A DNA stretch of 64,000 nucleotides from Candidatus Latescibacterota bacterium (lineage in GTDB: Bacteria > Latescibacterota > UBA2968 > GCA-2709665). Position 1 is the stretch's first letter. The number at the start of each line of letters is the position of its first letter. This document shows, one piece after another, positions 18,229 to 40,997 of the stretch. The position numbers were made by a program, and so were the translations under genes. Below the pieces are notes generated by a model. That model did no database searches. It was given only the letters and a program-made list of their open reading frames with translations, and was not told where the DNA came from. The stretch is taken from NCBI GenBank assembly GCA_965248435.1, contig OZ252100.1, forward strand, positions 2,080,001-2,144,000. The letters are read 5' to 3'.

Positions 18229-18263
18229 AGGAGGCAGTCGATTGAGCTGCTCAGTTGTCGTCT

Positions 18264-19022
18264 TTACTTCGCTGAGTCGACGGGTTTCCTGGCGACTGCG
18301 ATCAGGCGGTCGGCTTTCCGCCCATATTCGACGCCCTCGAAGTTACCATAGAGCTTCACTTCATTAAAGCCCACATCGGCCAGTCTATCCTTCAACTCTT
18401 GGCCGGAATAGATTGTGTGATGGAAGCTGAAGCTTAACACTTCCGAGCCCTTGACCATCGTCCACTCGTTTCGGATCCGAGTCCATTCGTCAAAGATCTC
18501 ACGGCGGTACACCATCAGAGTCCCGTCATCCAGCTTCTCAGACGTCGTGGACAGAAATATCTTCGCCAATCGTTCCTTCCCAATGATATCGATCACGACG
18601 GCGCCCCCGGGCACGAGATTCGCCAAGACGTTCTGAAGCACTTTGAGGTCTTCTGCTTTGTCATCGAAGTATCCGAATGATGTGTAAGAGTTCAGTACAA
18701 GGTCGAATGCATTGGGCCGAAGGAACTCCCGCATGTCCTCCTGGACCCACTCGATATCTAGCCCCTCATCCGCTGCCCTCGTTTTGGCTTTGTTCAGCAG
18801 AAAGGGAGTTCTATCCACTCCAGTGACACGGAATTCACGTCGTGCGAAAGGGATGCAGAACCGACCGGGACCGCAGCACAAGTCGAGAACCGATCCAGAG
18901 CTTAGATTGACCAACTCCAGCAGCTTGTCGACCAGCTCCTCTGCCGCTTGAAACTTGCTTTCAGGAAATATGAAAGGATATGTTTCGATCCAGAAGGATT
19001 CATCTTCAAACCATTGTGTCAT
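18264..19022 (-). CDS. Class I SAM-dependent methyltransferase
   Basis: VLDLCCGPGR, DMR, TSFGYF, L.PGG. Confidence 0.85.
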   Translation of the reverse strand: MTQWFEDESFWIETYPFIFPESKFQAAEELVDKLLELVNLSSGSVLDLCCGPGRFCIPFARREFRVTGVDRTPFLLNKAKTRAADEGLDIEWVQEDMREFLRPNAFDLVLNSYTSFGYFDDKAEDLKVLQNVLANLVPGGAVVIDIIGKERLAKIFLSTTSEKLDDGTLMVYRREIFDEWTRIRNEWTMVKGSEVLSFSFHHTIYSGQELKDRLADVGFNEVKLYGNFEGVEYGRKADRLIAVARKPVDSAK

Positions 19023-19075
19023 TCCTGACCCCTACTGTCTGCTGTTATGAGCCGGCGACTGTGCGAAACTTGATC

Positions 19076-19897
19076 CTATGACCTGTTCTTTTCCATCCAG
19101 CCGGCTGCGAAATCGACCAACTGAGGCTGAGGTATATGTTGGCAATCAGCTTGACCAACTCGGCCACTAAGAACCACTTCCCTACCATCGGTTCGCACAA
19201 AGTCCTCTCCAATCTGCGCGAAGTCGGAACTATCGAGATCGATCTCTTCGAATGTCGTCCACTGCCTCTTGCCGTCCATCCAGACCGGTGCGCCCTCCTC
19301 CAGCACCTTCTTCGACGGGTATGTGGAGCGATATTCCGCCAAGTGCATAGAGGTGTTCCTGGCGTGATCCACACCCAGGAGCAGGACACACCCGTCGAGT
19401 TCATAGATTCGCGCCAAAGGGGATCCCTCGCCCAAACCGTTGGGCAAAGGATGATCTCCTGTTATTCGTCCCGCATATTCGCCCCAGGCACAGAAGGAGT
19501 GGTGTGGGTGTGCGCTTCGAAGTACGCCTGGCTGCTTTCGAAAGGTCTCTGGTATCGCACCTATGGCTCGAGTTGGAGTAAAATCAGGATCGAATGCCGG
19601 CATGCTCTGACGGATAACCTCCCACCAGGACTCCGGAACTGGAGGGTTCTCCCATCTGCTCGGTTCGGTCAAATCCGTTGAGTGTGCTGGCATAACTAAA
19701 GTTCCGGTCGATCCTAAAGCCTCTTCAAGAGCCAGAATCACTGCTACAGCCCCGCCACAGACCCACCCGATGGAACTCAAGGAAGAATGCACCAGGAGCA
19801 CCATGTCTGGCTGTACACCCAGCGCATGTAGATCGGCCTTCAGCGACTCGACAGTCGCTAGCGTTTCGGTCCTTTTGACAGTCTCAGCTTCTGGCAT
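19076..19897 (-). CDS. AAC(3)/YokD-family aminoglycoside N(3)-acetyltransferase-like protein
   Basis: VHSSLSSIGWVCGG, GTLVMP, RSAHP..SF, NTSMHLAE motifs. Confidence 0.9.
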   Translation of the reverse strand: MPEAETVKRTETLATVESLKADLHALGVQPDMVLLVHSSLSSIGWVCGGAVAVILALEEALGSTGTLVMPAHSTDLTEPSRWENPPVPESWWEVIRQSMPAFDPDFTPTRAIGAIPETFRKQPGVLRSAHPHHSFCAWGEYAGRITGDHPLPNGLGEGSPLARIYELDGCVLLLGVDHARNTSMHLAEYRSTYPSKKVLEEGAPVWMDGKRQWTTFEEIDLDSSDFAQIGEDFVRTDGREVVLSGRVGQADCQHIPQPQLVDFAAGWMEKNRS

Positions 19898-19935
19898 AGG
19901 AATCGGCCCTGTAAGAGCGCAGAAACAAGAGGTGG

Positions 19936-20733
19936 TTACACGACAATAACTTTGAACACCGTAATCGCCTTGCCCATGATCACATTGAAGTCCTTATCAA
20001 CCTGTACCCGGACCAAACCAGTCCTCCTCGATATCTGCTTCCCCGTTAGCTCCTTCCTGCCAAGTCTATCTGCCCAATATTGCCCAAGTGTCGAATGAGC
20101 AATGCCAGTCACCGGATCTTCGTCGATTCCTACGGGCGGTGCAAAGAATCTCGAAACGAAATCGATTCTGTTCTCATCAGACTTCGCGGTCACGACGCAG
20201 CTGTGTCCATTTCTCTTCATCCGAGAGAGATCGGGACTGAGGTCGCGTATTCCTGCTGGATCGTTCAACAGAACGATGTGGTAATCGAATCTGCTCCTAA
20301 AAATCTCCTCGCAGCGATCTATTCGCAATTCGTCCAACAACCCACCAGCATCTGTTACGCAGGTAATCTCATCCTTTGGGAACTTCATCGCAATCCAGTC
20401 ATCTTGTTTTCTCACCTTCAGCAGATCGTTTGGCGCTTCAAACAGGATTTCGGAACCTTCCTGCACAATGGCCGATTCGTACAGGATATGCGCCGAGGCC
20501 AGAGTAGCGTGGCCGCACAATGGGACTTCAGTTTCAGGAGTGAAATACCTGATGGCATACCGATCTACTTTGGGGATCACGAACGCTGTCTCTGACAGAT
20601 TCATTTCTCCGGCAATTTGCTGCATCCATTGCTCATCGGCAGGCCCAGGCAACACGCACACCCCCGCCGGATTCCCCTTGAATTTGGTCTCTGCAAATGC
20701 ATCAACCTGATAGAGCATGATCTCTTTGGCCAT
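19936..20733 (-). CDS. PhzF family isomerase
   Basis: VDAF..KGNPAGV, EMNLSETAF, EVPLCGHATLA, EDPVTG. Confidence 0.9.
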   Translation of the reverse strand: MAKEIMLYQVDAFAETKFKGNPAGVCVLPGPADEQWMQQIAGEMNLSETAFVIPKVDRYAIRYFTPETEVPLCGHATLASAHILYESAIVQEGSEILFEAPNDLLKVRKQDDWIAMKFPKDEITCVTDAGGLLDELRIDRCEEIFRSRFDYHIVLLNDPAGIRDLSPDLSRMKRNGHSCVVTAKSDENRIDFVSRFFAPPVGIDEDPVTGIAHSTLGQYWADRLGRKELTGKQISRRTGLVRVQVDKDFNVIMGKAITVFKVIVV

Positions 20734-20754
20734 ATTCTTTCCTTGGATTACCGT

Positions 20755-21501
20755 TCACGGCTTCCTGGCTACAAAAAACATCCTGCCCTCGTGCCTTGAG
20801 AGTCCTTCTGCAATCGGATCCTTCCCATCAAACGTCAGAATCGCATCAAAGCCTGCCTTCTGAAACGCTGATTTCACCTCGCTCTCTGAATACCATCTCT
20901 GGAGCAGGGTTGAATCGCTCCGGTTCCAATTTCCTCGATCCAGTTCAAAGATCGTAAATTCAGTCTTCCCAATCCGTTGCTTTTCATCCCTGCTTGTACG
21001 TACCACAAACACGTGGTCATCTTCGACATGGCCACGCGATCCGCCCCACCTGGCCAGGTAAGCGTCCTCCATGTTCAAATCGAACTCGAAGTATCCCCCA
21101 CCTTCGAGGGCTTCGTATACGCTTCGGAAAACCCTCTCTAACTCCTCCAAAGTCATGACATGGTTCAAGCTGTCAAAGGTTGAGAAGGCGGCATTGAATT
21201 TCTTGGGCACAGAGAACTCACGGGCGTCTGAGACAAGAAACTCTGCATCTGGTGCCTTCTTGCGCGCAATCTCAATCATCTGCTCAGAGCCATCGATCCC
21301 CGTTATCTTGTATCCCTGCTCTACCAGTCTTGCGGCCAGCTGCCCTGTGCCGCAGCAGAGGTCAAGCACAGCACAATTCCTGGGCAGATGTCTCAGCACC
21401 AGGTGATCTGCGATCGCATACGCTTTGGTTGCAAAGAAGCTCCAATGCCGGTTATACACTTTGGCAAAAGGGTCATAGTCACTGTAACGAGTCACTGACA
21501 T
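20755..21501 (-). CDS. Class I SAM-dependent methyltransferase
   Basis: VLDLCCGTG, FDSLNH, GGYFEFDLN. Confidence 0.85.
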   Translation of the reverse strand: MSVTRYSDYDPFAKVYNRHWSFFATKAYAIADHLVLRHLPRNCAVLDLCCGTGQLAARLVEQGYKITGIDGSEQMIEIARKKAPDAEFLVSDAREFSVPKKFNAAFSTFDSLNHVMTLEELERVFRSVYEALEGGGYFEFDLNMEDAYLARWGGSRGHVEDDHVFVVRTSRDEKQRIGKTEFTIFELDRGNWNRSDSTLLQRWYSESEVKSAFQKAGFDAILTFDGKDPIAEGLSRHEGRMFFVARKP

Positions 21502-22105
21502 GGAACTCCCCTGCTGAATGTTTGCAACATGTCGGACTTTCGTTCATTTGATCGTGGGGCCGACTTTCTGCAACAGCCTTGGAAATGATACTCCCTACAT
21601 TGATATTCCCACCCTTCAAGATTCTCGCATATACCCCTCGTAAGTGCAATCCTTGTCTATCGGCCGCGTTGACGAAGTTAGAGGCTTCCTTTCCATAACG
21701 CGCTAGGAACTTCCTGCAACCATTGTGCGCCAAATCGGTGACTTCCAGAATTACATCATCAATAGCGAGCAATTGCCCTGCAGGCAAATTCTCTTCTCTG
21801 AGATCTAAATCAACAATCAGATTATCCCCTGCCAGGGACCATCTCTCTTTAGTTACAGTTATGAGGTCGAGCATGCGCACGTTTATGAGAGAGACCTGGT
21901 TACGAGTGCCATACTTACTGGAGGTAGTCCACCTATCACCTTGAATTCCTTCTTCTGGGGACAGATAGGCGCTCTCGAGTAATTCGCGTTCGCCCTCTTT
22001 TGGACGAATGAGTATGGCTTCCAGCGTTCCCCGATCCTCTGGAGACTGAAGAACTTGAGAAAGTCCACTTTCAATATCTGACTCGGTAACGAACAATTCT
22101 CCCAT
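21479..22105 (-). CDS. MOSC-domain protein
   Basis: GI.GDRW, LAGDNL.VD, H.GC.KF, LRGVYARI..GG.I.VG. Confidence 0.8.
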   Translation of the reverse strand: MGELFVTESDIESGLSQVLQSPEDRGTLEAILIRPKEGERELLESAYLSPEEGIQGDRWTTSSKYGTRNQVSLINVRMLDLITVTKERWSLAGDNLIVDLDLREENLPAGQLLAIDDVILEVTDLAHNGCRKFLARYGKEASNFVNAADRQGLHLRGVYARILKGGNINVGSIISKAVAESRPHDQMNESPTCCKHSAGEFHVSDSLQ

Positions 22106-22198
22106 GTCATTTCTCCAGGAACGCAAAATTCTCCTAGGTATCTCAGTTAAGCGGCTTCATTTCTTGATTTGTCTAGTCTTCCTGAGGCTCCGCTTGGA

Positions 22199-22685: not shown

Positions 22686-25600
22686 TCACTGGATATGCTT
22701 TTCCAGGAAAGCTTCACTGATCCGCCCTGTCTGTAGATACGTCCCGTCTTTGAGAACAAGGATATTCGTCGGCCAGCTCTTGACTTTGAGGGCTCCGATC
22801 AGTGTCGAATCTGCCAATACTTGAGGCCAGTCCATTTCGAACCTCTCGACCACCCGCTTGGCATCGGGGAGTTTGTTGACCTTCACAAAACTCACCATCT
22901 TCAGCTTATCCTTCCGGATCTTCCGATTCATTATCACCAGGGAGGGTATCTCCTGAATACAGGGTGGGCACCACTCGCCCCAGAAATTTAGCAAAGCATA
23001 CTGACCTCGCAGGGATTCTAAGTCGACAGTCTCACCGGAGATGGACTCGTAGTGGCCTTCCCAGAAAGACGCGGGAATCTGTCCAGTTTCCTGGACGGGA
23101 CTCGGCACCTTACTTCGCGCTTCCCGCCTGACTGAATCTCGTTCTGCCATCTCCTTTTGATGATAGAACGTCGGCGCCTCGCCCGTCTTGCTAAGGGTCA
23201 TCCTCTCACCATATGGATGAACGAACGAAAGTTTGTAGTTCTCTTCCCCAATCGTGAAGACGTCGTTCAGCTTAAACACTTCTACCTCCGTGGGTTCCAG
23301 TGACGGACCCCTGGCCCAACGCTTCAAGCCGCCTTCGCGATCTAGGTCGATGATGAGGAAGTCCCCCTCATCGTTGTAAAGTCCATTTCCGCTGAGATCC
23401 CACAGCCCGATCTCGTAGTCGGACTGATTAACCGTAACCCGGCCTCGACGCATGGAGAGATCGCCCCGGAAGTAGTACGTCCCAACCTCGCCGGTGAAGT
23501 CAGGGTAAAGTCTCTTCCAGAACCCCGCTGGACCTGCAAGCAGATCTCCACTAACTGTGTCTATGTACGAAGCCAGCATCTCTGATATTCTCTTGTTAGA
23601 AGGATGGTCATCTGGAAGGTGTCTAAGATGTGGTCTCCGCTGCCAGAGCCTCGCCGTCTTCTGTTTCGGATCTTCTCTGTCAGCTAGCCAGATCACAAAA
23701 TCGTTCTCATCGCGCGGAAAGAATCCCGGACTTCCGTCGTTCGTAAGGTCCTCGTCGTTGTTCAGATCGACATAGAACCGATCCCCATCCTTTTGTGGAA
23801 TCACCATCACGGAAATAATGCGATCTTCTCCAACTGCGGGCCGGTGACCCGTTTCGTAGAAATAGGCGGGGCGATCGGTAGCGGGAAGTTTCAGCTTTTC
23901 CCTCGGTTCCCTGTGGGACCCGACTATACTCACTCCGATACCGTCCAACCCGGTCAAATCAGGAAGCAGGACCTCTATCTCCTTCTTCTCGACAACCACC
24001 GGCTTCTTGCGTTCGCCCACAGGATCACGCGGTGCGCTGAGAACCGTAAGGGTCTTCTCTATGTCCTTCTTACCATCGAGATAGACTTCGAATCTCCACT
24101 TTCCGGGTTTGTCCAACGACCGGTCGAATTCATACTCAAAGATCGTCTCTTTCGGCCAACGCTCACCTTGAAGATCGTGCTCGGCGACTAACCTTCCTGC
24201 GCCGTCGTAGATCTTGCAAGCGATGTCCGCCTCTTCTCTGGGAACACCCCAGTTCACGAAGGCATAGACCTTACCTTTGGCGATCGAGATCTCTTTTATC
24301 TCGTCCATAGGTTTGTTCCCGCCGGGGCCACCCAGTCGAGTCGTGAGAACCGCGTCGCCCCGCCTGATCCTTGTCGGGACAAACCGGAGTCCCTTGATCG
24401 ACTCACCCGCCTCGACTGCGAATTCCAAGGGCTCCACGCCCTCGCCGTACACGACTGAAACTCTGATCTGTCCGGGAAAGACCGGGGCGCGGAAGCTGCC
24501 ATCAATCGACGTGGTCGCGCCCGACCTCGCCCATCCCTCTTCATCCTCGACGCGGATGCCCGCACCGGGCCAGGGCGATCCATCTTCGCGAGTCACCCTG
24601 CCCGAAACGCTGCCCAGGTTGTCCAGACTGGGTCGATAGGGAACCCACCCGACGTATCTGACACCCAGCAGAAGCCTGCCGTCATTCAACTCTCTGATAC
24701 CGTTGACGTGTCCTGCGGGTAGACCATCCTCACTCGTGATGAGCAGCCACCCACCGTCCTGATAGCGCAACAGACCGCCACGGCTTTCGAGGCCGTGATG
24801 GTGGTAAGATGTGCCCATCCAGATCGTGCCGTCCTTTATTTGGCAGATGGCTGAAGCCCCGCCTGCCGGCAGGCCGTGAACCTCGTTCAACGTCTTCCAG
24901 GACGCTCCATCAAACACGGAGATTCCGTTGCGGTACGAGTGCGTCCCCCAGACCTTTCCGTCCTGAGCGACGAGGATCTCGTAGGTCTTTTTGCCACCCA
25001 ACCCGTCCTCTCGAGTGTAGGAGGTCCACTGTTTTCCATCGAAGCGGCTGATCCCCAACCGTGTCCCAACCCAGACCGATCCATCCCTCCCGTCTGCGGC
25101 GCTGTAGACGCGGTTGTGCGAAAGCCCGTCCTCCACTCGAAAGTTTCGCCAGTTCTTTCCATCAAAACGTGTGACGCCGTGACCCTCATCTCCGACCGGG
25201 TGCGCCCTCATCCATATGTTCTCTTTGCTGTCGAAGCACAGTGCGTACACGGCAGGCCCGATGCTCCTGTCGTGGGTGGTGATCTCCCAGTCCTTTCCAT
25301 CGTAGCGCGCGAGCGCAGGATTGGTTCCCGCCTCGTGGCTTCCCGAAAACCACAATGTTCCGTCCTCGGCCTGGAGCATGGATGTAGTCCATCCATCCAT
25401 CAAGCCGTCCGCAGGACCGTAGGTCGTCTTCTCTTTACCGTCGAATCGGATGATCTCTCCATGCATCGAAGACCGGCCCCAGACGCTGCCGTCTTTGGCA
25501 AATAGAGGCAGGAGCAGGCCTCCCATCTCCTGAATCGCGGTATCGATGCTCGCGCTTAACGAAACCGAATCAGTCCCCCTATTTCCGAAAACGGTCGCCT

Positions 25601-26735
25601 TGACCGTTCCAAGGGTCACTGCCGCGAGCACCACGGCAGCTGCGACCGAGATCCACATGCCGCGGCTGATATGCGGAGAGACGCGTTTTCCGATGCTCAC
25701 AATCCGGTCGATGCGATCCATCACACCGCCCTGCCTGGCCATATCCATACCCATCGAAACGGCTGGGATTGGCTGCATCGCGGAAGTTACATCCAACAAG
25801 ACACCCGCGTAACTATCTGAATCGCCCGTGGTCACGATCGACCAGTCGTCGCAAGCCTGTTCCTGCGCTACGGACAGGCGACGACTGGCTATCCACACGA
25901 GTGGATGGAACCAATAAAACGCCAGCGAGAGTGAGGAGATGAACTTGAAAAGGCAGTCAAGGCGGCGGACATGAACTAGCTCGTGAATGAAAATCACATC
26001 AAGGGCTTTCTTCTCGATTAGATTCTCTGGAATCACAATGATCGGGTCCAAAATCCCGATCTGCGTGGGGCTCCCGATTCGATCGCTGCTTGCTAACGCT
26101 ACTTTGCGTCTGATGCCAAGCCGCTGCTTTATCTTATCCATTCGAAGTTTGAGAGACGAATCATTGAGATCGGTCAGGGACCTTCTTAGGGTGAAGACAT
26201 ACAACACTGCTCCGACTAACCGAATCAGCATCACCACTAGACCTGCCAGGTAGATTGACACACCAACAGCCAGAACAATCGGTAATCGATCAGCGGCAAC
26301 AACCGAAGATGCCGGGACATTCCGAGCAGACGGAGGGTAGGCTCTTGTCGACAACGCAGGAGATTGAAGATTCCGGTCTGACGGCCGCATCGGCCTGGTC
26401 GCAGGCGAGACGGTCGTCTCCATCTTGTTTTGACTCAGGGCAGCGGGCGCTTCATCATTTACACCTGACAGTTCTGTGAAGGCCTTCAGAACGAGAACCG
26501 ACGACGGCTTTGGGAGGATGGGGAGACGCAGTGAGGGCATCAACCCAGCAGCCAGCGGGATCAACAACAGACCCACCATGCCGAGGTTCAACAGCAAGTT
26601 CCGCCACGCAGCCCGATTCGCGCTACACAGTCGGACTGCCAGGAGGACGAGTGCGACCAGGACCGTTGCTTTGATTGTAGTATCCAGCAGAAAAAGCCCA
26701 ACAGTTTCCGTGAGATCGAACCATAGCTCTGTCAT
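22686..26735 (-). CDS. BlaR1/M56 peptidase fused to beta-propeller repeats and a C-terminal TlpA-like thioredoxin
   Basis: HELVHVRRLD, WFHPLVW, EQACDD; repeated YDG..W..Y...DGL units; NFWGEWCPPC. Confidence 0.85.
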   Translation of the reverse strand: MTELWFDLTETVGLFLLDTTIKATVLVALVLLAVRLCSANRAAWRNLLLNLGMVGLLLIPLAAGLMPSLRLPILPKPSSVLVLKAFTELSGVNDEAPAALSQNKMETTVSPATRPMRPSDRNLQSPALSTRAYPPSARNVPASSVVAADRLPIVLAVGVSIYLAGLVVMLIRLVGAVLYVFTLRRSLTDLNDSSLKLRMDKIKQRLGIRRKVALASSDRIGSPTQIGILDPIIVIPENLIEKKALDVIFIHELVHVRRLDCLFKFISSLSLAFYWFHPLVWIASRRLSVAQEQACDDWSIVTTGDSDSYAGVLLDVTSAMQPIPAVSMGMDMARQGGVMDRIDRIVSIGKRVSPHISRGMWISVAAAVVLAAVTLGTVKATVFGNRGTDSVSLSASIDTAIQEMGGLLLPLFAKDGSVWGRSSMHGEIIRFDGKEKTTYGPADGLMDGWTTSMLQAEDGTLWFSGSHEAGTNPALARYDGKDWEITTHDRSIGPAVYALCFDSKENIWMRAHPVGDEGHGVTRFDGKNWRNFRVEDGLSHNRVYSAADGRDGSVWVGTRLGISRFDGKQWTSYTREDGLGGKKTYEILVAQDGKVWGTHSYRNGISVFDGASWKTLNEVHGLPAGGASAICQIKDGTIWMGTSYHHHGLESRGGLLRYQDGGWLLITSEDGLPAGHVNGIRELNDGRLLLGVRYVGWVPYRPSLDNLGSVSGRVTREDGSPWPGAGIRVEDEEGWARSGATTSIDGSFRAPVFPGQIRVSVVYGEGVEPLEFAVEAGESIKGLRFVPTRIRRGDAVLTTRLGGPGGNKPMDEIKEISIAKGKVYAFVNWGVPREEADIACKIYDGAGRLVAEHDLQGERWPKETIFEYEFDRSLDKPGKWRFEVYLDGKKDIEKTLTVLSAPRDPVGERKKPVVVEKKEIEVLLPDLTGLDGIGVSIVGSHREPREKLKLPATDRPAYFYETGHRPAVGEDRIISVMVIPQKDGDRFYVDLNNDEDLTNDGSPGFFPRDENDFVIWLADREDPKQKTARLWQRRPHLRHLPDDHPSNKRISEMLASYIDTVSGDLLAGPAGFWKRLYPDFTGEVGTYYFRGDLSMRRGRVTVNQSDYEIGLWDLSGNGLYNDEGDFLIIDLDREGGLKRWARGPSLEPTEVEVFKLNDVFTIGEENYKLSFVHPYGERMTLSKTGEAPTFYHQKEMAERDSVRREARSKVPSPVQETGQIPASFWEGHYESISGETVDLESLRGQYALLNFWGEWCPPCIQEIPSLVIMNRKIRKDKLKMVSFVKVNKLPDAKRVVERFEMDWPQVLADSTLIGALKVKSWPTNILVLKDGTYLQTGRISEAFLEKHIQ

Positions 26736-27118
26736 GACTCCTGCTCCTTCTTTCGCTGCTCCAGTCTTTTTTGAATCTGCTCGAGTTCATCCAAATCCAC
26801 CTGCTCGTCTTCAACCAGACGTGCAAGAAGCATTTCCCCGGACCCGCCAAAAACGCGCTGGATCATCTGCTTCACGGCAGACTTCTGGACTTCCTCGCGT
26901 TTGATCAGGGCGCTGTAGATGTTCGCGCGCCCCTGCTTCCGGCTTGCCACATACTTCTTATCCTCCATGATCTGCAGCATAGTCCGAATCGTGGAATCCA
27001 CGAGCGGATCAGGGAGGGTCTTCTGAACCTGCTCGACACTCGCTTCCCCTTCGTCCCAGACAACCTGCATAATCTGCATCTCCCGGGGAGTCAGTCCATC
27101 CAGACGTGATCTCGCCAT
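26732..27118 (-). CDS. BlaI/MecI/CopY family repressor
   Basis: LTPREMQIMQVVW, STIRTML..ME.K.YV, VFGGS. Confidence 0.9.
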   Translation of the reverse strand: MARSRLDGLTPREMQIMQVVWDEGEASVEQVQKTLPDPLVDSTIRTMLQIMEDKKYVASRKQGRANIYSALIKREEVQKSAVKQMIQRVFGGSGEMLLARLVEDEQVDLDELEQIQKRLEQRKKEQES

Positions 27119-27225
27119 ACACTCCTCCAACCTCCAAAAAGGGCTTGTCGCCCGGCTCTAAGCAAGACAGGAATGGTTGATGGGCCAATGATTCCGCTTC
27201 GGTTCCACGGAAAGGGTCGCCTATC

Positions 27226-27282
27226 CGCTAAATTTCTAGCGATTTAACGCTAATAAAATAGCGTATAAATTTCGGGTGTCAA
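27226..27282 (-). promoter_or_regulatory. blaI-like promoter with twin palindromic operators
   Basis: CGCTA-N6-TAGCG at 27226-27241 and 27248-27263; TTGACA-16 nt-TATTTT with the -10 inside one box. Confidence 0.7.
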
Positions 27283-27363
27283 GCAAAAAGTTCAAAACTA
27301 CATTTTGCCCGGATCGCCCTCAACAGTATGAAGTGGTGGCGCAGGCTTCCCGGACCTATCATT

Positions 27364-28677
27364 TCAAGGATGGAGCCTGTTAGGAGTACGTGGCAGGAAC
27401 GTGGTCTCCCGTATGTTGGGACGATCGAGCAAGACCATGAGGAGGCGGGAGAGACCCAAACCGAAGCCGCCGTGAGGAGGGCACCCGCACTTGAAAAAGT
27501 CTAGGTAGAACTGGATGGAGTCGAGGCTCATGCCAGTTTCTCGGGCCTGAACTACTAACCGCTCCAAGCGGTGTTCTCGCTGGGCGCCTGTGGTGATCTC
27601 AAGACCCTTCCAGAGAAGATCGTAGCTTTTCGTGATGTGCGATGCTTCCTCGTATCGCATGTGGTAGAAGGGACGTACCGATACTGGATAGTCGGTCACA
27701 AATACAAACTCATGGCCGAACCTGCCGTGCACGTGCTCCCCTAATAGCCTTTCTCCTTGAGGATCTAGCTCACCCGAGTAGGGCACCTCGTAGCCTTCCT
27801 GTTCAAGATAGCCGATGGCCTCACTCAAGGTGACCCGCGGAAAGGGAACAGAAGGGACAATCATCTCCAAACCAAAGAGATTAGCGATTTCATGCCCATG
27901 TTTCTCGCTAACAGTCTGAAGCGCATACGACAGCCACCTTTCCTCGAAGGCCATCACATCCTCGTGAGACTCGATCCAGCCGATTTCCACGTCCACGCTT
28001 GTGAACTCGGTGGTGTGCCGCGAAGTGAATGATGGGTCTGCCCGAAAGACGGGTGCGACTTCGAAAACCCGATCCAGGCCCCCAGCAATGGCCATCTGCT
28101 TGTAGAACTGCGGCGACTGAGCCAGGTATGCCCGTTTCTTAAAATACTCAAGTCCGAAAAGCTCGGAACCTGACTCACTAGGGCTACCCATCAGCTTGGG
28201 GGTATGGATCTCGATGAAACCCTCCCTGATCCAGAAGTCCCGCATCGCTTGTTCAAGTGTGGTCTGCACTCGGAACAGAAGATGGTTCTCCGGACGCCGC
28301 AGATCGAGGTAGCGCCAGTCGAGCCTTAGATCCTGACCAGGGAGTGGTGTGGCAAAAGGATCTATCGGTAGAGGAGACACCGCCAGGTTCTCTATCTGAA
28401 GACCGGTCAGGCAAAGTTCGATTCCTCCAAGCTTCACCTGCGGGTTTTCTACCAACTCTCCTGTCACAATCACGGCGGACTCGCGAGTGAGGTCAGACGC
28501 ATGTTCTGCTAGAGAGGGATTTCCCTCCTTTTCTATCACAGCCTGTGCACAACCTGTGTGGTCTCGCAAGATGAGAAAGATCATGTGCTTCTGGTCACGG
28601 ATGGTCTGAACCCACCCCTGCACTGTAACGGTATGACCAGCCTTACTAGGCAGCTCAGAGATTAAAGTGCGTTCCAC
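27364..28677 (-). CDS. aspS: Aspartate--tRNA(Asp/Asn) ligase, short archaeal-type, probably non-discriminating
   Basis: OB fold GWVQTIRD..LRD.TG; RLDWRYLDLR; LAQSPQFYKQ; FRAD...RH..EF; GAQREH; PPHGGFGLG..R; 437 aa without GAD insert. Confidence 0.9.
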   Translation of the reverse strand: MERTLISELPSKAGHTVTVQGWVQTIRDQKHMIFLILRDHTGCAQAVIEKEGNPSLAEHASDLTRESAVIVTGELVENPQVKLGGIELCLTGLQIENLAVSPLPIDPFATPLPGQDLRLDWRYLDLRRPENHLLFRVQTTLEQAMRDFWIREGFIEIHTPKLMGSPSESGSELFGLEYFKKRAYLAQSPQFYKQMAIAGGLDRVFEVAPVFRADPSFTSRHTTEFTSVDVEIGWIESHEDVMAFEERWLSYALQTVSEKHGHEIANLFGLEMIVPSVPFPRVTLSEAIGYLEQEGYEVPYSGELDPQGERLLGEHVHGRFGHEFVFVTDYPVSVRPFYHMRYEEASHITKSYDLLWKGLEITTGAQREHRLERLVVQARETGMSLDSIQFYLDFFKCGCPPHGGFGLGLSRLLMVLLDRPNIRETTFLPRTPNRLHP

Positions 28678-28700
28678 AGTAGTATCCTCCTATCTGAGAG

Positions 28701-28740
28701 AAAAAAGAAAAAGCCCGTCGCAATGCATCAACGACGGGCT
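28701..28740 (-). terminator. Attenuator terminator 2 upstream of aspS
   Basis: AGCCCGTCG-loop-CGACGGGCT followed by TTTTCTTTTTT. Confidence 0.85.
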
Positions 28741-28761
28741 CTGAAATTGAACGCGGGGTTA

Positions 28762-28902
28762 TTAACTGCCAAACCACGGTCCTGCCCGCCGTTGGATGGG
28801 ATTATTATCGTCGTTCGGATTGGGATTCAGATTCAGGTAGACTTTGGTCACGATCGGCTCCTTCACGATAAGTTGAGAAGCAATTGAATGGATCCTGATC
28901 AT
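28762..28902 (-). CDS. Asn/Asp-rich leader peptide L2, 46 aa (MIRIHSIASQLIVKEPIVTKVYLNLNPNPNDDNNPIQRRAGPWFGS)
   Basis: AAGGAG RBS; 6 Asn + 2 Asp in 11 codons; CAACGGCGGGC pairs with terminator arm GCCCGTCGTTG. Confidence 0.8.
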   Translation of the reverse strand: MIRIHSIASQLIVKEPIVTKVYLNLNPNPNDDNNPIQRRAGPWFGS

Positions 28903-28934
28903 TTCAGTTGATCTCCTTAGGGGGCAATGTTCTG

Positions 28935-28975
28935 AAAAAGAAAAAACCCGCTGTTGATTGGCTCAACGGCGGGTT
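28935..28975 (-). terminator. Attenuator terminator 1 upstream of aspS
   Basis: AACCCGCCGTTGA-loop-TCAACAGCGGGTT followed by TTTTCTTTTT. Confidence 0.85.
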
Positions 28976-28999
28976 ATTGTTTGCGTGTAGGTTATCTGC

Positions 29000-29122
29000 T
29001 CAGGGCAATACAAGATCCCGCCATTGGATGCCATAATTATTGGGGTTGGAATCAGGATTGAATCCCTTGGCTCCGTTCATCAATGCTATCGAAGACAAAC
29101 GGGGTTTACGGCGAGTTATCAT
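29000..29122 (-). CDS. Asn-rich leader peptide L3, 40 aa (MITRRKPRLSSIALMNGAKGFNPDSNPNNYGIQWRDLVLP)
   Basis: AAAGGAG RBS; NPDSNPNN cluster; CAATGGCGGG pairs with terminator arm CCCGCCGTTG. Confidence 0.8.
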   Translation of the reverse strand: MITRRKPRLSSIALMNGAKGFNPDSNPNNYGIQWRDLVLP

Positions 29123-29331
29123 CAGTCAGAATCTCCTTTGGATTGATCGGTTACGGTATACGTACAATAATCGACAAAAATTGTGTAGAGTCAAGATTTT
29201 TCTCAGGACGGGTAGGATTTCGGAGCCTCGGCGTTATATTGGGCCCGGTCTTACGCATTATAGTGCAAGTGCACTGAAAGGAAACGCCCGTGATCGATGA
29301 TCGCCAGCTTGTCGAAGCGAGGTGTTTCTGC

Positions 29332-30198
29332 TTACGAGGTGGTTCTCTGCTTGCGTTGTTGCATCCTAGAATACGACCAGTGACTGAATGTACCTACAAA
29401 CTCGAAGCCGAGATGGGGATACAGATACTTCCCTTGGCCGGAAGCGAATAGTGTCGCAATGTGATAGCCCAATTCATAAGCGAAAGAACATGCGGCAAAG
29501 GTCACAGCGGTTCCTATACCTTGGCGTCGTGCCCTCTTTACGACCCCGACCCCGTACAAACCAGCAACCCCGCCACCGATACACAGCGTAGCGACCCCCA
29601 ATGGCTCGCCTCCCATAGAGGCAACAAAATGCCAAATCCGTCGGGGCTTTTGAGCTGCCATCATTTTAAAACTTTGAAGGCGAGCCCTCCGAAGAGGCGT
29701 CGATATTCGACCTATATCCGGATGTTCATAGTGCTCAAAGATTTCAAATTCGTTCTGGACACCAACCTTGAGCTTCTTTGGGAGGTTGTGGTCCATTGCA
29801 AGACGACTCAAGTCACAAATCATCGGCGATGAACGCGAGTAACAATGGAGCCCATAACTTCTCAAACAATCCTCTATATTGTGGGGCCGCGTACTCGGAC
29901 CTAACATGATATTCAGGAACTGCTCCGCCTCAGCATAGCATCTGAGTATTTCATCGAGGCGCTGTTCCGCTGTCTCACGCTTGAATCGAGGCGATACAAT
30001 CTGGTTGGCTCCTCCTGGTTGTGTCGATAATACCCAGGTAGTATCAGATTCTTTATGAACTTGCCCACCTACAGACCGCGCAGTATGGATGGCGAATTGT
30101 TCGCAGTTCACTTCAGTCGCCCTCGCCAGTTTTTGGGGCGATATATCAACTAAGGGCTTAGGTAGCCGGAATCTGCTTCTTGCGGTCTGGGTAGACAT
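29332..30198 (-). CDS. GNAT N-acetyltransferase
   Basis: VAGLYGVGV...ARRQGIG, L.AS..G..LY..LGF. Confidence 0.8.
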   Translation of the reverse strand: MSTQTARSRFRLPKPLVDISPQKLARATEVNCEQFAIHTARSVGGQVHKESDTTWVLSTQPGGANQIVSPRFKRETAEQRLDEILRCYAEAEQFLNIMLGPSTRPHNIEDCLRSYGLHCYSRSSPMICDLSRLAMDHNLPKKLKVGVQNEFEIFEHYEHPDIGRISTPLRRARLQSFKMMAAQKPRRIWHFVASMGGEPLGVATLCIGGGVAGLYGVGVVKRARRQGIGTAVTFAACSFAYELGYHIATLFASGQGKYLYPHLGFEFVGTFSHWSYSRMQQRKQRTTS

Positions 30199-30313
30199 TA
30201 CTTCTCATTCGATAATGACGCCTAACGGGCTTCGGCCCAACCTGCTGTCGCAGGTTCTCTTACATAATATCACCGGCATCTAGAACTTGCCTGTCCAATT
30301 GTCCCATCTATCG

Positions 30314-31759
30314 CTAAGAATTCACTGCAAGTTCCTCAAGCAGCTTGGCTGTTTCCTTCTGGCCAAAGTATAACGCCCAACCCTTCGGGGTGCTATCATG
30401 GGAACCGTCCTTGAGGGTCAAGTCCGCGTCGCATTCCACCAAGAACTTTACGATTTCGTCATGACCGTTTACTGTGGCAATATGAAGAGGCGTGCCGCCG
30501 GCATACATGTCCTTGTCGTGAGGACGTGCTTGGATGAGTGACGGGTCAGATTTGATAAACAGCTTGACCGCTTGGAGGTCGCCAATAAGAGTAGCTGTGA
30601 AAATGTCGTCAACAACCGCGCCATTCCCCAAAAGTAGATCTACCATCGCACGATCCCCTGCTTTCCAAAAGAGGGGTGTGCGTTTGTGAAACTCATCGCG
30701 AGCGTTGACGTCTGCACCTCGCTCGATGAGAAGCTTCGCTATCTCAGTCGTTTTAGCGTAGTGAAGTGGCCGAGCACCTTCAGGGCCTTTCGTATTAACA
30801 GCATTGGGGTCAGCGTCTAGGAAAGCCTTTACCCGATCAAAGTCGCCCATTTGTGCTGCAGCACAGATGTCTATCTCCGCACCCTTCTCGATGAGGTAGT
30901 CGATCAGTTCGGAGTTTCCCGCTATGATCGCCAGCGATAACGGCGTGAGACCTGCGCTACCCTTGACGTTTACATCTGCCCCGCTTTCGACGAGCTTCTT
31001 GACCACCTCCACGTGACCCTTCCCGCAAGCGACGTGTAGCGCCTGGAAATCCTCATGGTACCACTCAGGCACCGGTCCCTCGGCGGTCGCAAGAGACGGA
31101 TCTCTTGCCAAAAGCGAAGTTACTTTTCCGACGTCCCCTTTGTCTGCTGCAGAGATAATATCCATTACGCGATCCGCGAAAGCCTCGTCTCGGGAAGGTC
31201 TACGTTCGTGAAGCGATTCTTTGACCATTCTAATCATCCTTTGTTTCAATCGTTTTCGTCCCACATGAAGCCGGTTCTTTACACTGCTCAATGGAATGTC
31301 TAGGAACGATGCGATGCTTTTCTGCGGGATCTCAGAGATGTAAAAGAGAGTAATGACTTCTCGCTCTTGCACAGGGAGATTGCCGATCTCCATTCGGATC
31401 CTGCTATGGACTTCCTGCCGGATTAACCTCTGTTCGGGATCGAGATTGTTAGCGGCTACAGCATCCGTCTCAGCAAGAGGAACGATATTGAACCGTTTCC
31501 TTCGAGTAATACGGTCGCATTGCTTCAATGTTATCCGCTTAAGCCATCCGGGAAAAGCAGCCGGTTCTCGAAGTGCTGAGAGGTCCAAATAGGCTGCTAA
31601 GAAGGCCTCCTGCGCCGCATCTTCAGCAAGGTGCAAGTCGCCTAGGACCGTGATAGCGTAGCCTACTACAAGGTCTTGGAACTGACGAACCAAGGACTCG
31701 AAGGCCTTGCTGTCACCAGCCTGAGCACGCAGCACAGTTCTACTTATCGATTCTTGCAT
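30314..31759 (-). CDS. ECF sigma factor with C-terminal ankyrin repeats
   Basis: AEDAAQEAF, FPGWL, SSVKNRLH; ALHVA..GH, TPLSLA, TPLHIA..GH ankyrin motifs. Confidence 0.9.
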   Translation of the reverse strand: MQESISRTVLRAQAGDSKAFESLVRQFQDLVVGYAITVLGDLHLAEDAAQEAFLAAYLDLSALREPAAFPGWLKRITLKQCDRITRRKRFNIVPLAETDAVAANNLDPEQRLIRQEVHSRIRMEIGNLPVQEREVITLFYISEIPQKSIASFLDIPLSSVKNRLHVGRKRLKQRMIRMVKESLHERRPSRDEAFADRVMDIISAADKGDVGKVTSLLARDPSLATAEGPVPEWYHEDFQALHVACGKGHVEVVKKLVESGADVNVKGSAGLTPLSLAIIAGNSELIDYLIEKGAEIDICAAAQMGDFDRVKAFLDADPNAVNTKGPEGARPLHYAKTTEIAKLLIERGADVNARDEFHKRTPLFWKAGDRAMVDLLLGNGAVVDDIFTATLIGDLQAVKLFIKSDPSLIQARPHDKDMYAGGTPLHIATVNGHDEIVKFLVECDADLTLKDGSHDSTPKGWALYFGQKETAKLLEELAVNS

Positions 31760-32474: not shown

Positions 32475-36255
<3,781 letters not shown>

Positions 36256-36652: not shown

Positions 36653-36720
36653 GATGTTTCAGAGGATAGACCACTGCATTGAGAAGGGAGCAGTGGTCTT
36701 TTCTTTTAGGAGATGGGCTT

Positions 36721-38283
36721 GTGCTTCAGGTAAACAATCTATCCTATTCGTTCGGGACACTCAAGCTTCTGGACTCCGTGTCTCTCGGCTTGAACGCGGG
36801 CCAGGTGATCGCAATTGTCGGACCAAACGGCTCTGGCAAATCGACCCTGCTCAAATGCATCGTTGGCGAAATAGCAGACTACGATGGAAATGTGGTCTTT
36901 CAACGAAATGTGGAGGTGTCATACCTTTCCCAGAAGCCTGACCAGAATTTCGACGAGAGCGCTTTTCAGCGGATTCTTTCGTTCTCTCCTGGGATCTTGA
37001 ATATCTATCGTGAAATGCAACAAGGAGACTACGGGAGCGTTCAAGATTACAGCGAAATGGGAGGATACGCGAAGGAGGAAATGGGAAGGCTCTATGCCGA
37101 GAATTTTCAACTGGTCGATATCCTGGAAGAACCTTATAACACCCTATCGTTGGGACAAAGGAGGAAGGTAGATATCGTTGGCGTCTTGGTATCAGATGCT
37201 GACTTAGTGCTTATGGACGAACCCATAAACTTCCTTGATATACGGGGCATCACAGCATTTGAAGAAACCTTGTTACTGAAAAAGGAGAATGGCAAGGCCT
37301 TCGTCATCATCAGCCACGATAGAGAGCTTATCGATAGCCTCGCCGACACTACAATCTTCTTAGAACGAGGGAAACTGTTCAAAGTCCACGGGGGCTATTC
37401 ATTGGCCCTCGAGCACAAAGAGAGAGAATTCCAGGCAAGGTTTGATAAGGCAAACGTTCTGCGGAATAAGATCCAGGCGCTCCAGGAGGATATGAGGAGA
37501 AAGATGGGATGGGGTATTCAACGTGAGAATGAGAGCATCGACTCCTCAAGCCGCAGACTCGCCCGAAAGATGATGAAACGTTCAAAGGCTGTTGAAGGGC
37601 GTATGCAGAAGAAGACCGAGGAGCTGGAACAAGAAAAGCCCTGGATCGAGAAGGAGGTCGCGCTGAGTTTTCCAGAGTACCCTATCGCTAATCGGTCGGT
37701 CGCGGCGTTAGAGAATGTTTCAAAATGTTATGGAGAAAATGTGGTGCTTACGAATTTGACGCTCTCTTTAAGAACCACGGACAGAGTATCGGTTATTGGC
37801 CCAAATGGATCAGGAAAGACCACCCTACTCCGCATTCTTGCTGGGGAAGTCACTCCGGACTCTGGCCTGCTTCGACCTAGCAGAAACAGAAATATCGGAT
37901 ATGTGCCTCAGGGCTTAGCAGGATTTTATGACCACAACATTTTCCTGAATAACTTCCAAATCTCGGGGGTAGACCAAAGCGTGATCAGACAGTTCCTTGG
38001 CGGGGCGAAGTTAAGCGGAGAGAAGGTACTCCAGTCGATTAAGACTCTGAGCTACGGAGAACTGATGCGGGGTGCAATCGTAAAAATGATTTTGGAGAAA
38101 GTAGAGTTCCTCCTTCTAGACGAGCCGACTGCCCATCTGGATATTGAGTCAGTAGAGGTGCTCGAGAAATTGCTAACAGCATTCGCCGGGGGGTTTGTTC
38201 TCGTGAGTCACGATAGACGGCTCATCTCCAATGTATCCGATGAGATCTATCAACTGAGTTCGGGTCGGCTGGAGAGGATGTAG
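36721..38283 (+). CDS. ABC-F family ATPase, candidate ribosome-protection protein
   Basis: Two NBDs (GPNGSGKS, GPNGSGKT; LSLGQ, LSYGE; DEP; SHDR), no TM segments, long helical inter-NBD linker; AGGAG RBS before GTG 36721. Confidence 0.88.
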   Translation: MLQVNNLSYSFGTLKLLDSVSLGLNAGQVIAIVGPNGSGKSTLLKCIVGEIADYDGNVVFQRNVEVSYLSQKPDQNFDESAFQRILSFSPGILNIYREMQQGDYGSVQDYSEMGGYAKEEMGRLYAENFQLVDILEEPYNTLSLGQRRKVDIVGVLVSDADLVLMDEPINFLDIRGITAFEETLLLKKENGKAFVIISHDRELIDSLADTTIFLERGKLFKVHGGYSLALEHKEREFQARFDKANVLRNKIQALQEDMRRKMGWGIQRENESIDSSSRRLARKMMKRSKAVEGRMQKKTEELEQEKPWIEKEVALSFPEYPIANRSVAALENVSKCYGENVVLTNLTLSLRTTDRVSVIGPNGSGKTTLLRILAGEVTPDSGLLRPSRNRNIGYVPQGLAGFYDHNIFLNNFQISGVDQSVIRQFLGGAKLSGEKVLQSIKTLSYGELMRGAIVKMILEKVEFLLLDEPTAHLDIESVEVLEKLLTAFAGGFVLVSHDRRLISNVSDEIYQLSSGRLERM

Positions 38284-39206: not shown

Positions 39207-40997
39207 CTAACCCTTCAACCTCTTCTCCAGCGCGTCGACTTCCGCTCTCATCTCGGCGGGCATCCGGTCACCAAACTTCGAGTAGAATTCACGGATTTCG
39301 GGCAGCTCGGGTAGCCAGTCCTCCGCCCGGACCCTCAAAAGCTCATCCAGGTATTCGTCGGGAAGGTCCAGACCATTTAGATCCAGCCCCTCCCGGCTCG
39401 GCAGCAACCCGATCGGAGTTTCCACAGCCTCGGCTTCGCCCTCGATCCGTTCGCAAATCCACTTGAGCACACGGCTGTTCTCGCCGAATCCGGGCCAGAG
39501 CCAGCTCCCCTCCGAGTCTTTGCGAAACCAGTTCACGAAGAAGATCTTTGGCGCGAGGTCTCCGAGCGTGTTCCCCATGTCCAGCCAGTGATGGAAGTAG
39601 TCACCCATATGGTAGCCGCAGAACGGAAGCATCGCGAAAGGATCCCGGCGGAGCTTTCCGACCGCTCCGGCCGCGGCGGCCGTCGTTTCGGAGCCCATCA
39701 CGGAGCCCATGAAGGCCCCGTGCGTCCAGTTGAACGCCTCGTAGACCAGAGGGACCACACTCGATCTCCGTCCGCCGAATAGGAACCCGGAGATCGGGAC
39801 CCCATCCGGGTTTTCCCAATCCGGGTCGATCACCGGACACTGGGCGGCAGGTGCTGTGTAGCGCGCGTTGGGATTGGATGCAGGCTCACCCAATCCTGTG
39901 TTCCACTCACGGGCCTTCCAGTCCACCAGACCGGAAGGGGGATCGGGCGTCATGTCTTCCCACCAGACATCTCCCTCAGGCGTTTGCGCCGTATTCGTAA
40001 AGATGCTGTTTTCACGCAGCGCGGCCATCGCGTTTCCGTTCGACGTATCGTTCGTTCCGGGAGCCACGCCGAAAAATCCATACTCCGGGTTGATGGCGTA
40101 GAGCCGGCCATCTGGCCCCAAACGCATCCACGCGATGTCATCGCCGACGCATCGCACCTCCCAGCCAGGAATCGTCGGTTGAAGCATGGCCAGATTTGTC
40201 TTTCCACACGCGGAGGGGAACGCGCCGCCCAGGTAATACTTCTTGCCCTCCGGCGACGTCAGACCAATAAGCAGCATGTGTTCCGCCATCCACCCCTCCC
40301 TGCGGGCCAGGCAGGAGGCAATCCGAAGCGCAAAACACTTCTTTCCCAGAAGCGCATTTCCCCCGTAGCCGGACCCGTAAGACCAGATCGAGGGATCCTC
40401 CGGAAAGTGAACGATGTATTTGTTATCTGCATCACACGGCCAGGCCGAGTCTTCTGCCCCGGGTTCGAGAGGGGAACCGACCGAGTGAAGGCAGGGAACG
40501 AACTCGCCTTCGCCAAGTGCCTCCAGCACCGGATCCCCGATTCGCGTCATAATCCGCATACTGCACACCACGTAGGCAGAGTCGGTAATCTCCACCCCGA
40601 CCTTCGAAATCGGCGACCCGATGGGTCCCATCGAGAAGGGGATGACGTACATCGTGCGGCCTCGCATCGCTCCCTCGAACAGACCGTGCAGCATCCGCTT
40701 CATCTCTTCAGGGTCGCGCCAGTTGTTCGTGGGACCGGCATCCTCCTCCTTGAGAGAACAGATAAACGTCCGGTCCTCCACACGTGCCACATCCCCAGGG
40801 TCGGACCGGCACAGAAAACTGTTTGGCCGCAGGTCTGAATTCAGACGAATAAACGTGCCCTTCTGACAGAGCTTCTCTGCAAGACGATCGTACTCTGCCT
40901 GCGAACCGTCGCACCAGTGAACCCCGGCGGGCTTGCAGAGTTGGGTCACTTCATCGACCCAGGCCTTCAATTTGGTATTCGCAGCCATCCATTCCAC
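39207..40997 (-). CDS. pckG: Phosphoenolpyruvate carboxykinase (GTP)
   Basis: [51 protein letters not shown]. Confidence 0.97.

Follow-up and report, generated by a model that had tools for sequence, protein, structure and literature searches.

Two paralogous Asn/Asp-codon leader-peptide units, predicted to form a transcription attenuator, precede the gene of an aspartyl-tRNA synthetase of the non-discriminating type in a Latescibacterota genome

Attenuation of transcription by a translated leader peptide is a textbook mechanism, and the cases described in the literature searched (mostly without subscription journals) cover a limited set of amino acids. With regard to the genes of aminoacyl-tRNA synthetases (aaRSs), classical attenuators precede pheST in the gamma-proteobacteria, and candidates have been reported for trpS and leuS in Streptomyces (PMC1262725). 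A further candidate is described here, the leader of aspS, the gene of an aspartyl-tRNA synthetase (AspRS), in a 64-kb stretch of the genome of a Candidatus Latescibacterota bacterium (contig OZ252100.1; this whole stretch is called the window, and its positions are used throughout). As predicted from sequence and folding, this leader is probably a ribosome-mediated transcription attenuator made of two paralogous units in series.

How does this leader compare with the systems already described? With the pheST, trpS and leuS attenuators it has in common an upstream open reading frame (uORF) with cognate codons, an intrinsic terminator, a competing antiterminator and an aaRS gene as the target (PMC1262725). 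It differs from them in its codons, which are those of Asn and Asp, in its target, an archaeal-type non-discriminating AspRS, and in its Latescibacteria-like host; in addition, the peptide has an invariant C-terminal motif, the unit is duplicated, and no 1:2 hairpin was found. The trp, his, leu, thr and phe attenuators share with it the regulatory codons and the arms 2, 3 and 4, arm 2 being located just past the codons. These attenuators have leader families in Rfam, none of which matches the aspS leader, and to our knowledge the sequences of their leader peptides are not conserved beyond the codon run.

The T-boxes of aspS and asnS in Firmicutes are similar in their input (charged or uncharged tRNA), in their output (terminator or antiterminator) and in the type of gene controlled, and tandem T-boxes are known as well. 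However, a T-box reads the tRNA directly, without translation, whereas the aspS leader would be read through translation of its uORFs. A series of two uORF-controlled structures is also present in the Salmonella mgtCBR leader (PMC3641672); there the two open reading frames (ORFs) sense different signals, whereas the units of the aspS leader are paralogues with the same kind of codon. A last relative is suggested by the end of the peptide. In SecM and in YwcI, the RAGP protein encoded 5' of sacT, only a few residues separate an R-A-G-P core from the C-terminal end of a small uORF product, and the regulated gene lies downstream, as in the aspS leader. The known RAPP-like members are for the most part monitoring substrates that bear localisation signals, and they act through exposure of a downstream ribosome-binding site (RBS), whereas the RAGP of the aspS leader, at which arrest is predicted, overlaps an antiterminator arm, comes after a run of hungry codons and stands before an aaRS gene. 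Because the product of this gene is a cytoplasmic aaRS, a Sec-monitoring role does not apply.

The original prediction, made from the letters of the DNA, had stated that no description of such a leader was known, and this agrees with what was found: the literature searched held no Asn-codon leader and none for a non-discriminating AspRS, and a look-up of terms in three comparative papers (PMC2965389, PMC2659441, PMC4833913) gave no Asn leader. One of them lists an unspecified "tRNA synthetase leader" before aspS of Shewanella (PMC2659441). Comparison with the Rfam families led to the same picture. No T-box matched at E values up to 10 between 27000 and 31000, none reached the gathering score anywhere in the window, and neither a T-box nor any other leader family was found in the 20 loci scanned among 80 related ones (introduced below). 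Other Rfam leaders were likewise absent from 27000-31000, the best match there being that of the rnk leader to a terminator (21.1 bits, gathering score 55). Assignment of the leader to an Rfam family was thus rejected, the best matches (16-21 bits, E above 2) being terminator look-alikes; the only match at gathering level in the window is a lysine riboswitch located elsewhere.

Two consecutive units before aspS, each with AAGGAG, a short ORF and a terminator, had been proposed with no strand given; all of these elements are present, and they lie on the minus strand, as do all the leader features described in what follows. Each unit consists of a Shine-Dalgarno sequence AAGGAG, a uORF of 40 or 46 codons, a cluster of Asn/Asp codons, a segment of the type ATCCAAYGGCGGG and a strong intrinsic terminator, the 5' arm of which is, in both units, complementary to this segment within the uORF. 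An alignment of the two units, A and B, extends over the whole length between Shine-Dalgarno sequence and T-run and shows them to be clear paralogues.

Unit A is preceded by a promoter-like site (29167-29194) with nine of twelve matches in a consensus scan: TTGACT at 29194-29189, 16 nt, and GATTAT at 29172-29167. The Shine-Dalgarno sequence (29133-29138) is followed after 10 nt by the ATG of uORF A at 29122. This uORF, taken from the ORF list (29000-29122), has 40 codons and a TGA and encodes MITRRKPRLSSIALMNGAKGFNPDSNPNNYGIQWRDLVLP, with GFNPDSNPNNYGIQWRDLVLP as the C-terminal part of the peptide. The codon cluster at 29036-29059 reads AAT CCT GAT TCC AAC CCC AAT AAT, i.e., N P D S N P N N. 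Arm 2, which folding and a motif search placed at 29017-29027 inside the uORF, is CCAATGGCGGG; it begins three codons past the cluster and pairs with 28973-28964 in a helix of 10 bp, one of them G-U, which is present in the minimum free energy (MFE) structure of both the truncated and the full unit. The intrinsic terminator (28935-28975) has 13-nt arms with one C-A mismatch and a GCCAA loop, AACCCGCCGTTGA-GCCAA-TCAACAGCGGGTT, and is followed by the T-run TTTTTTCTTTTT; the hairpin alone folds with -18.1 kcal/mol.

Unit B repeats this arrangement nearer to aspS. Its Shine-Dalgarno sequence AAGGAG (28913-28918) has the same spacing of 10 nt to the ATG, at 28902, and uORF B (28762-28902 in the ORF list; 46 codons and TAA) encodes MIRIHSIASQLIVKEPIVTKVYLNLNPNPNDDNNPIQRRAGPWFGS, the C-terminal part being NLNPNPNDDNNPIQRRAGPWFGS; homologous peptides exist in three related loci and in the protein databases. 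Cluster B (28801-28833) has eight N/D in 11 codons, AAT CTG AAT CCC AAT CCG AAC GAC GAT AAT AAT. It is followed by the codons of a peptide tail, N-P-I-Q-R-R-A-G-P (28777-28803, delimited by an alignment of nine peptides), in which RAGP corresponds to 28788-28777. Within the codons I-Q-R-R-A lies arm 2 (28784-28795; from folding and covariation), which is CCAACGGCGGGC, begins two codons past the cluster and pairs with 28739-28729, a helix found in the MFE structure of a transcript ending after arm 3. The intrinsic terminator (28701-28742), from a terminator scan, is AGAGCCCGTCG / CGACGGGCTTT followed by TTCTTTTTT, with a hairpin that can be written GCCCGTCG...CGACGGGC plus the T-run; alone it folds with -20.0 kcal/mol. 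About 10 nt further on is the RBS of aspS, GGAGGA (28690-28685), and the gene itself starts with GTG at 28677 and encodes 437 amino acids (RBS and gene together, 27364-28690, from the sequence and profile matches). Thus, both clusters named in the original prediction, NPDSNPNN (there L3, here unit A) and NLNPNPNDDNN (there L2, here unit B), are in place. A segment complementary to the 5' arm of the terminator had been placed about two codons past each of them; the pairing exists in both units, the spacing being three codons in unit A and two in unit B.

Clusters of this kind are rare. Among the 1310 small ORFs of 8-90 amino acids on both strands of the window, two have at least five N/D within eight residues, and these two are uORFs A and B, with maxima of 5/8 and 6/8. 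Asn accounts for 2.8% of the residues in 37 ORFs of the window, and the same density of at least five N/D in eight is reached by 14 of 8051 small ORFs in a background of 77 loci from other phyla. The motif shared by both units, ATCCRRYGRCGGG, occurs twice in the window (expected 0.02), and none of 100 shuffles had two matches.

The identity of the regulated gene is an important part of the argument. The aspS product scores above the cutoffs of two NCBIfam models for aspartate--tRNA(Asn) ligases, NF003483 (489.6 bits, cutoff 353) and TIGR00458 (400.9 bits, cutoff 368.4), and below those of the models for the asparaginyl enzyme (AsnRS) and the bacterial AspRS. Its domains are the class II core tRNA-synt_2 (PF00152) and the OB anticodon-binding domain (PF01336) of Pfam, and the nearest solved structures are the archaeal AspRS (3nel/1b8a) and the non-discriminating AspRS2 of Thermus (1n9w/3kfu). 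By these matches aspS encodes an archaeal-type non-discriminating AspRS, annotated as charging both tRNA-Asp and tRNA-Asn, as the original prediction had it. At the positions aligned to W26 and K85, which we take to be anticodon-domain residues from work on the Thermococcus enzyme (no paper confirming this was found), the window AspRS has Q and K, and the non-discriminating Thermus enzyme has H at the first; no conclusion is drawn from these residues. In organisms with such an enzyme, Asn-tRNA is made from Asp-tRNA(Asn) via GatCAB.

Do the leaders of related genes look alike? For this comparison, the best 80 of at least 596 confirmed genome stretches coding for AspRS relatives were used (53-64% identity); they exclude the closest relatives, P0002-P0006, which are 72-76% identical and were seen in a protein search. 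Three of the 80 loci are from Latescibacteria (L001, L002 and L003), and with AspRS proteins 63-64% identical to that of the window they are the closest of the loci listed. In each of the three, one homologous unit is present directly 5' of the aspS orthologue, with a uORF that has six or seven N/D in eight residues, the arm-2 motif, and a hairpin with T-run. The loci from other phyla (Solirubrobacterales, Anaerolineae, other Actinomycetota and others) are different: a uORF with at least 5/8 N/D is present in 0 of the 77, as is the arm-2 motif, and in three of them a uORF with 4/8 N/D is found far upstream. A search for N/D-rich uORFs before homologous aspS genes had been recommended with the original prediction. 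As for the signals around the homologous uORFs, TTGACT occurs 5' of those of L001 and L003, and L002 has GGAG, 9 nt and ATG. A strict terminator scan scored the hairpins of L001 and L003, while that of L002 has an internal mismatch.

The genes that surround these units are not the same. A GNAT gene and a BlaI/BlaR1-like pair flank leader and aspS in the window; in L001 the neighbours are a gamma-glutamyltranspeptidase, a methyltransferase and a PfkB kinase, in L002 a class I aaRS, and there is no synteny beyond leader and aspS among the window, L001 and L002. Since the flanking genes differ, the element travels with aspS. Regarding the tandem form, only the window genome has two units among the four genomes with DNA, L001-L003 having one each; the second copy is, on this DNA, particular to the window genome among the four compared. 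Peptides homologous to uORF B are also found in the databases (P0122-P0126 and P0128). A peptide-profile search of 1.84 billion representatives (E up to 0.001) gave seven matches: five were already in the query alignment, P0128 was new, and P0129 was spurious. The latter was rejected as a leader peptide, the match being an N-rich stretch in a protein of 1885 amino acids. Because small uORFs are rarely predicted as genes, such a search is not a gauge of the true distribution.

At the RNA level, a structure alignment was made of five rows, i.e., units A and B of the window and the units of L001, L002 and L003. In all five, arm 2 resembles arm 4, the 3' arm of the terminator, and either of them can pair with arm 3, the 5' arm. 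For the antiterminator, 51 of 55 cells are paired, as against 31-65% in slid controls, and 2 of 11 pairs have changed on both sides (A-U to G-C); for the terminator, pairing holds in 39 of the 40 cells, and double-sided changes affect 3 of 8 pairs. These covariation counts are supportive but not decisive, with the caveat that sequences which are related may surpass shuffled ones even where no structure exists. The hairpins have energies of -18 to -25 kcal/mol and are followed by a T-run in all five units, with at least seven T in four of them and a single C interruption in both units of the window.

The folding of partial transcripts is consistent with a switch between these two helices. When the transcript is cut after arm 3, the arm 2:arm 3 helix is in the MFE structure of four of the five units. 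A ribosome was then modelled as a mask of 28 nt, from -15 to +12 around the first base of the A site, as assumed from standard footprints. In the masked truncated folds, whichever N/D codon of the cluster is in the A site, at least seven arm 2:arm 3 pairs form in four of the five units, and 0-7 pairs are left when the intervening Y or P codons are there. Once the A site has reached I in the unit B types or G in unit A, and over the next 9-11 codons, R-A-G-P included, no pairs remain in four of the five units. In L003, arm 2:arm 3 pairs enter the MFE structure only with the A site at the first N of the terminal NN. Of the full-length units, A changes cleanly from antiterminator to terminator at the G codon just past NN, whereas in B the antiterminator is favoured chiefly while NPNPN is in the A site, two early codons (A and S) having the same effect. 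Taken with the conservation, the compensatory changes and the absence of a T-box match, this switch supports the proposal of a leader-peptide attenuator.

The following course of events can be proposed. Transcription would start near 29160, and in each unit a ribosome would follow the polymerase closely, translating the uORF. While Asn-tRNA(Asn) and Asp-tRNA(Asp) are abundant, the ribosome would clear the N/D cluster and enter the next 11-12 nt, which are arm 2; with arm 2 buried in the ribosome, arm 3 would pair with arm 4, and the terminator would stop transcription before aspS. If either charged tRNA were scarce, the ribosome would stall in the cluster, eight or more nucleotides before arm 2, and the free arm 2 would capture arm 3 once the latter is made, so that the terminator would be blocked and the polymerase would proceed. 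Both charged tRNAs would be products of the regulated enzyme, Asn-tRNA via GatCAB, and an enzyme producing Asp-tRNA(Asp) together with Asp-tRNA(Asn), the precursor of Asn-tRNA(Asn), is in keeping with a leader in which N and D codons are mixed. In order to be read through to aspS, a transcript would have to pass both units, an effect that would be multiplicative, with a lower basal level and a sharper response. A double AND gate sensing Asn- and Asp-tRNA shortage had been suggested for this arrangement. The two units in series are there, but an AND of different inputs does not hold: as both units have the same kind of codon, they would be a serial gate on one signal. Finally, in the unit B types a pause at RAGP, with the Gly codon in the P site, may keep the switch OFF until the terminator has been synthesised.

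Several points weigh against such an attenuator. In L001 and L003 the uORF lacks a clear Shine-Dalgarno sequence, and the T-run of L002 has only five T. The sample is also small: no more than four genomes are represented by DNA, and L001 hardly differs from L003, so that the covariation rests on about three independent lineages and one paralogue. In the folding, the truncated L003 unit picks a different MFE structure, and the full-length units of L001-L003 are at equilibrium in the terminator form at every ribosome position. The switch in these three must therefore be kinetic, as in classical attenuators. A conserved 1:2 hairpin, acting as anti-antiterminator or pause hairpin, was not found in folds up to arm 2 of the five units. 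From the literature comes a warning of another type: in the ilvB leader of S. coelicolor, mutation of the putative regulatory codons had no effect (PMC1262725). Lastly, within the 64-kb window there is no gatCAB, asnS, asnB, second AspRS or tRNA gene. With these points taken into account, the attenuator is still judged the likely function of the leader.

Another intriguing feature, absent from the original prediction, is the end of the peptide, NPI[Q/R]RRAGP, which suggests more than plain codon sensing. The sequence N-P-I-[Q/R]-R-R-A-G-P is invariant in nine of nine aligned peptides of the unit B type and in P0128, and it is followed by one to four variable residues and the stop; among the best 80 loci, only L001-L003 have a RAGP-like motif that near to a stop upstream. 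The tail is partly forced by arm 2, which covers the codons I-Q/R-R-R-A. Yet, among the window, L002 and L001, the codons for N, P, R, A, G and P show synonymous changes only (AAT/AAC, CCC/CCT/CCG, CGG/CGA, GCA/GCT, GGA/GGC and CCG/CCA), the two indels that distinguish uORF B from L002 preserve the frame, and similarity does not extend past the stop codon. This pattern of synonymous changes, in-frame indels and similarity that ends at the stop points to selection on the peptide. A cause at the RNA level for the A-G-P codons, by extension of arm 2 or by a local hairpin, was rejected as a general explanation, a local 6-bp hairpin over arm 2 being present in L001 and L003 only.

What might the tail do? 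RAGP is the C-terminal arrest core of SecM, in which the Arg is irreplaceable, and it supports arrest in several contexts (PMC12992588); it is strongly under-represented in bacterial proteomes (PMC12992588, PMC10987492). Stalling in YwcI, a small RAGP protein of B. subtilis, occurs when Gly occupies the P site, and it requires the Pro (PMC10987492). If a ribosome on the leader had GGA in its P site, the 12 nt that it covers upstream would coincide exactly with arm 2. For the window and L002, where the stop is 4-5 codons past Pro, arm 2 would no longer be covered by a terminating ribosome, and a pause at RAGP would fill this gap. It may be, then, that the tail pauses the ribosome on arm 2, and the leader may be an arrest-assisted attenuator, in which a hungry-codon sensor is followed at fixed spacing by a RAGP core of the SecM type that parks the ribosome on the antiterminator arm and enforces termination. 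This extension is put forward tentatively, as a possibility with rather less than an even chance, and three observations speak against the pause. Unit A has no RAGP. P0127, a 34-residue variant of the L001 type, has NNNDDNNPI, then continues in another frame (PATGWTG...) without RRAGP, and is either a real variant or the result of a one-base assembly error. In addition, most natural segments of the RAPP/RAGP type that were tried in E. coli and B. subtilis gave no efficient arrest (PMC10987492).

If the leader is an attenuator, do both units act? One could argue that only unit B works, and that unit A is a decaying duplicate and at most a leaky constitutive terminator. Unit A is a recognisable paralogue and yet lacks the RAGP, its cluster has five N/D codons as compared to eight in cluster B, it is without counterpart in L001-L003, and the database search with unit A in the query gave no peptide similar to its own. 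However, unit A retains its AAGGAG, spaced as in unit B, together with an uninterrupted frame, the cluster of N codons, a perfect 10-bp arm 2:arm 3 helix and a strong terminator, and its fold switch is the cleanest of the five units. A working unit B with an idle unit A is thus regarded as unlikely, although it deserves to be kept in mind.

Alternatively, is the peptide rather than its codons the sensor? Here the N/D tract and NPI[Q/R]RRAGP would be one nascent-peptide sensor, similar to TnaC or SpeFL: a ligand or factor, e.g., free Asn or Asp, would stabilise or relieve arrest at RAGP, and the fate of arm 2 would be decided by the arrested ribosome instead of by codon starvation. The invariance of NPI.RRAGP despite synonymous codon changes is in favor of this proposal, as is the distance of RAGP from the stop, 1-4 residues as in known arrest uORFs (PMC12992588), and with the ribosome at RAGP the N/D residues would lie in the upper exit tunnel. 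On the other hand, the tract varies in order, length and interspersed residues (NLNPNPNDDNN, VNPYNDNNNHN, GNNNDDNN and GNPNPNHNDGN), a variability that fits codon counting better than precise contacts in the tunnel. Furthermore, unit A retains the N codons and arm 2 without RAGP, and no ligand-sensing arrest peptide with a RAGP-type motif was found in the literature searched. An arrest-peptide switch of this type appears improbable, and codon-sensing attenuation is preferred.

Two proposals do without attenuation altogether. Control could be exerted via translation, Rho-dependent termination or mRNA stability, with the uORF ribosome altering the structure of the aspS RBS or the loading sites of Rho. 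The short distance from terminator B to the RBS and the short T-run of L002 could be read in this way, but the RBS is outside both helices, and stable G+C-rich hairpins followed by at least seven T in four of five units are the signature of intrinsic terminators, which makes this alternative very unlikely. Finally, that the uORFs are small-protein genes with their own terminators, or that the hairpins end the upstream GNAT gene, with the proximity of aspS being meaningless, is scarcely credible: small ORFs with RBS and terminator can be independent genes and the peptides are conserved, but the unit is directly 5' of aspS in four genomes whose other neighbouring genes differ, an independent gene has no need of the complementarity of arm 3 to the uORF and of the compensatory changes seen in five units, and between the end of the GNAT gene, at 29332, and terminator A there are ~360 nt, with the promoter-like site among them.

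What follows if codon-sensing attenuation of aspS is correct? Attenuation would be extended to Asn and Asp, to the indirect tRNA-dependent route to Asn-tRNA, and to an uncultured phylum; for this Latescibacteria-like phylum, no genetic system and no data on gene regulation surfaced in the literature searched. That N and D codons occur together parallels the enzyme's dual tRNA specificity and would give an independent hint, read from the DNA alone, that both tRNAs are served. As for the RAGP tail, it is a simple, testable example of a single RNA switch on which arrest by the nascent peptide may act jointly with codon starvation, and the uses of RAPP-like arrest motifs would be widened beyond protein localisation and metal homeostasis. 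If the arrest-assisted version were true, the leader would be a hybrid of two mechanisms so far described only separately, and among RAGP arrest peptides this one would be the first whose target is intrinsic termination and also the first that controls an aaRS. On the practical side, further copies in metagenomes can be looked for with two signatures, the RNA motif ATCCRRYGRCGGG and, in the peptide, an [N/D]-run with NPI[QR]RRAGP after it.

Some observations on the neighbourhood can be added. A further ORF of 35 codons (MRKTGPNITPRLRNP...) lies at 29151-29258 (minus strand), 5' of the TTGACT site, and has a TATAAT before it at ~29262-29257; this ORF neither is rich in N/D nor has a terminator of its own. 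Directly 3' of aspS, at 22686-27130 (minus strand), a BlaI-like repressor (26732-27130) is followed by a BlaR1-like M56 protein of 1349 amino acids, whose C-terminus is extended by a long additional region with a ResA/thioredoxin-like domain at its end; the pair has a promoter-like site of its own (27282-27255). In the related loci, a 6S RNA is located just downstream of the aspS homologue in L005 (4469-4652, plus strand), and a 5S rRNA near that in L075 (5441-5557, minus strand), both homologues being of the non-discriminating kind.

Farther away in the window, an ORF of 1098 amino acids (32475-35771, minus strand) has a region similar to the C-terminus of RpoB (residues 396-564; TIGR02013, 185 bits, cutoff 801) and one similar to RpoC (residues 702-896; TIGR02386, 115 bits). 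It resembles a short fused beta/beta'-like protein and adjoins a fusion of an extracytoplasmic function (ECF) sigma factor with ankyrin repeats (30314-31759). An ABC-F protein, of the ribosomal-protection-like type, is encoded at 36679-38283 on the plus strand (NF000355, 362 bits, just under the cutoff of 380); ABC-F factors are reported to free some arrested ribosomes, and a structure describes the YheS-mediated release of SecM-arrested ribosomes (PMC13249984). The lysine riboswitch mentioned above (RF00168, 86.7 bits; 42282-42463, minus strand) is located 5' of dapA (41004-42035) and of the gene of a GTP-dependent phosphoenolpyruvate carboxykinase (39207-40997). Lastly, the region 11714-22126 (minus strand) is dense in genes similar to S-adenosylmethionine methyltransferases, which occur amid AAC(3)- and AAC(6')-like acetyltransferases, a PhzF-family isomerase and a short-chain dehydrogenase/reductase (SDR) oxidoreductase.

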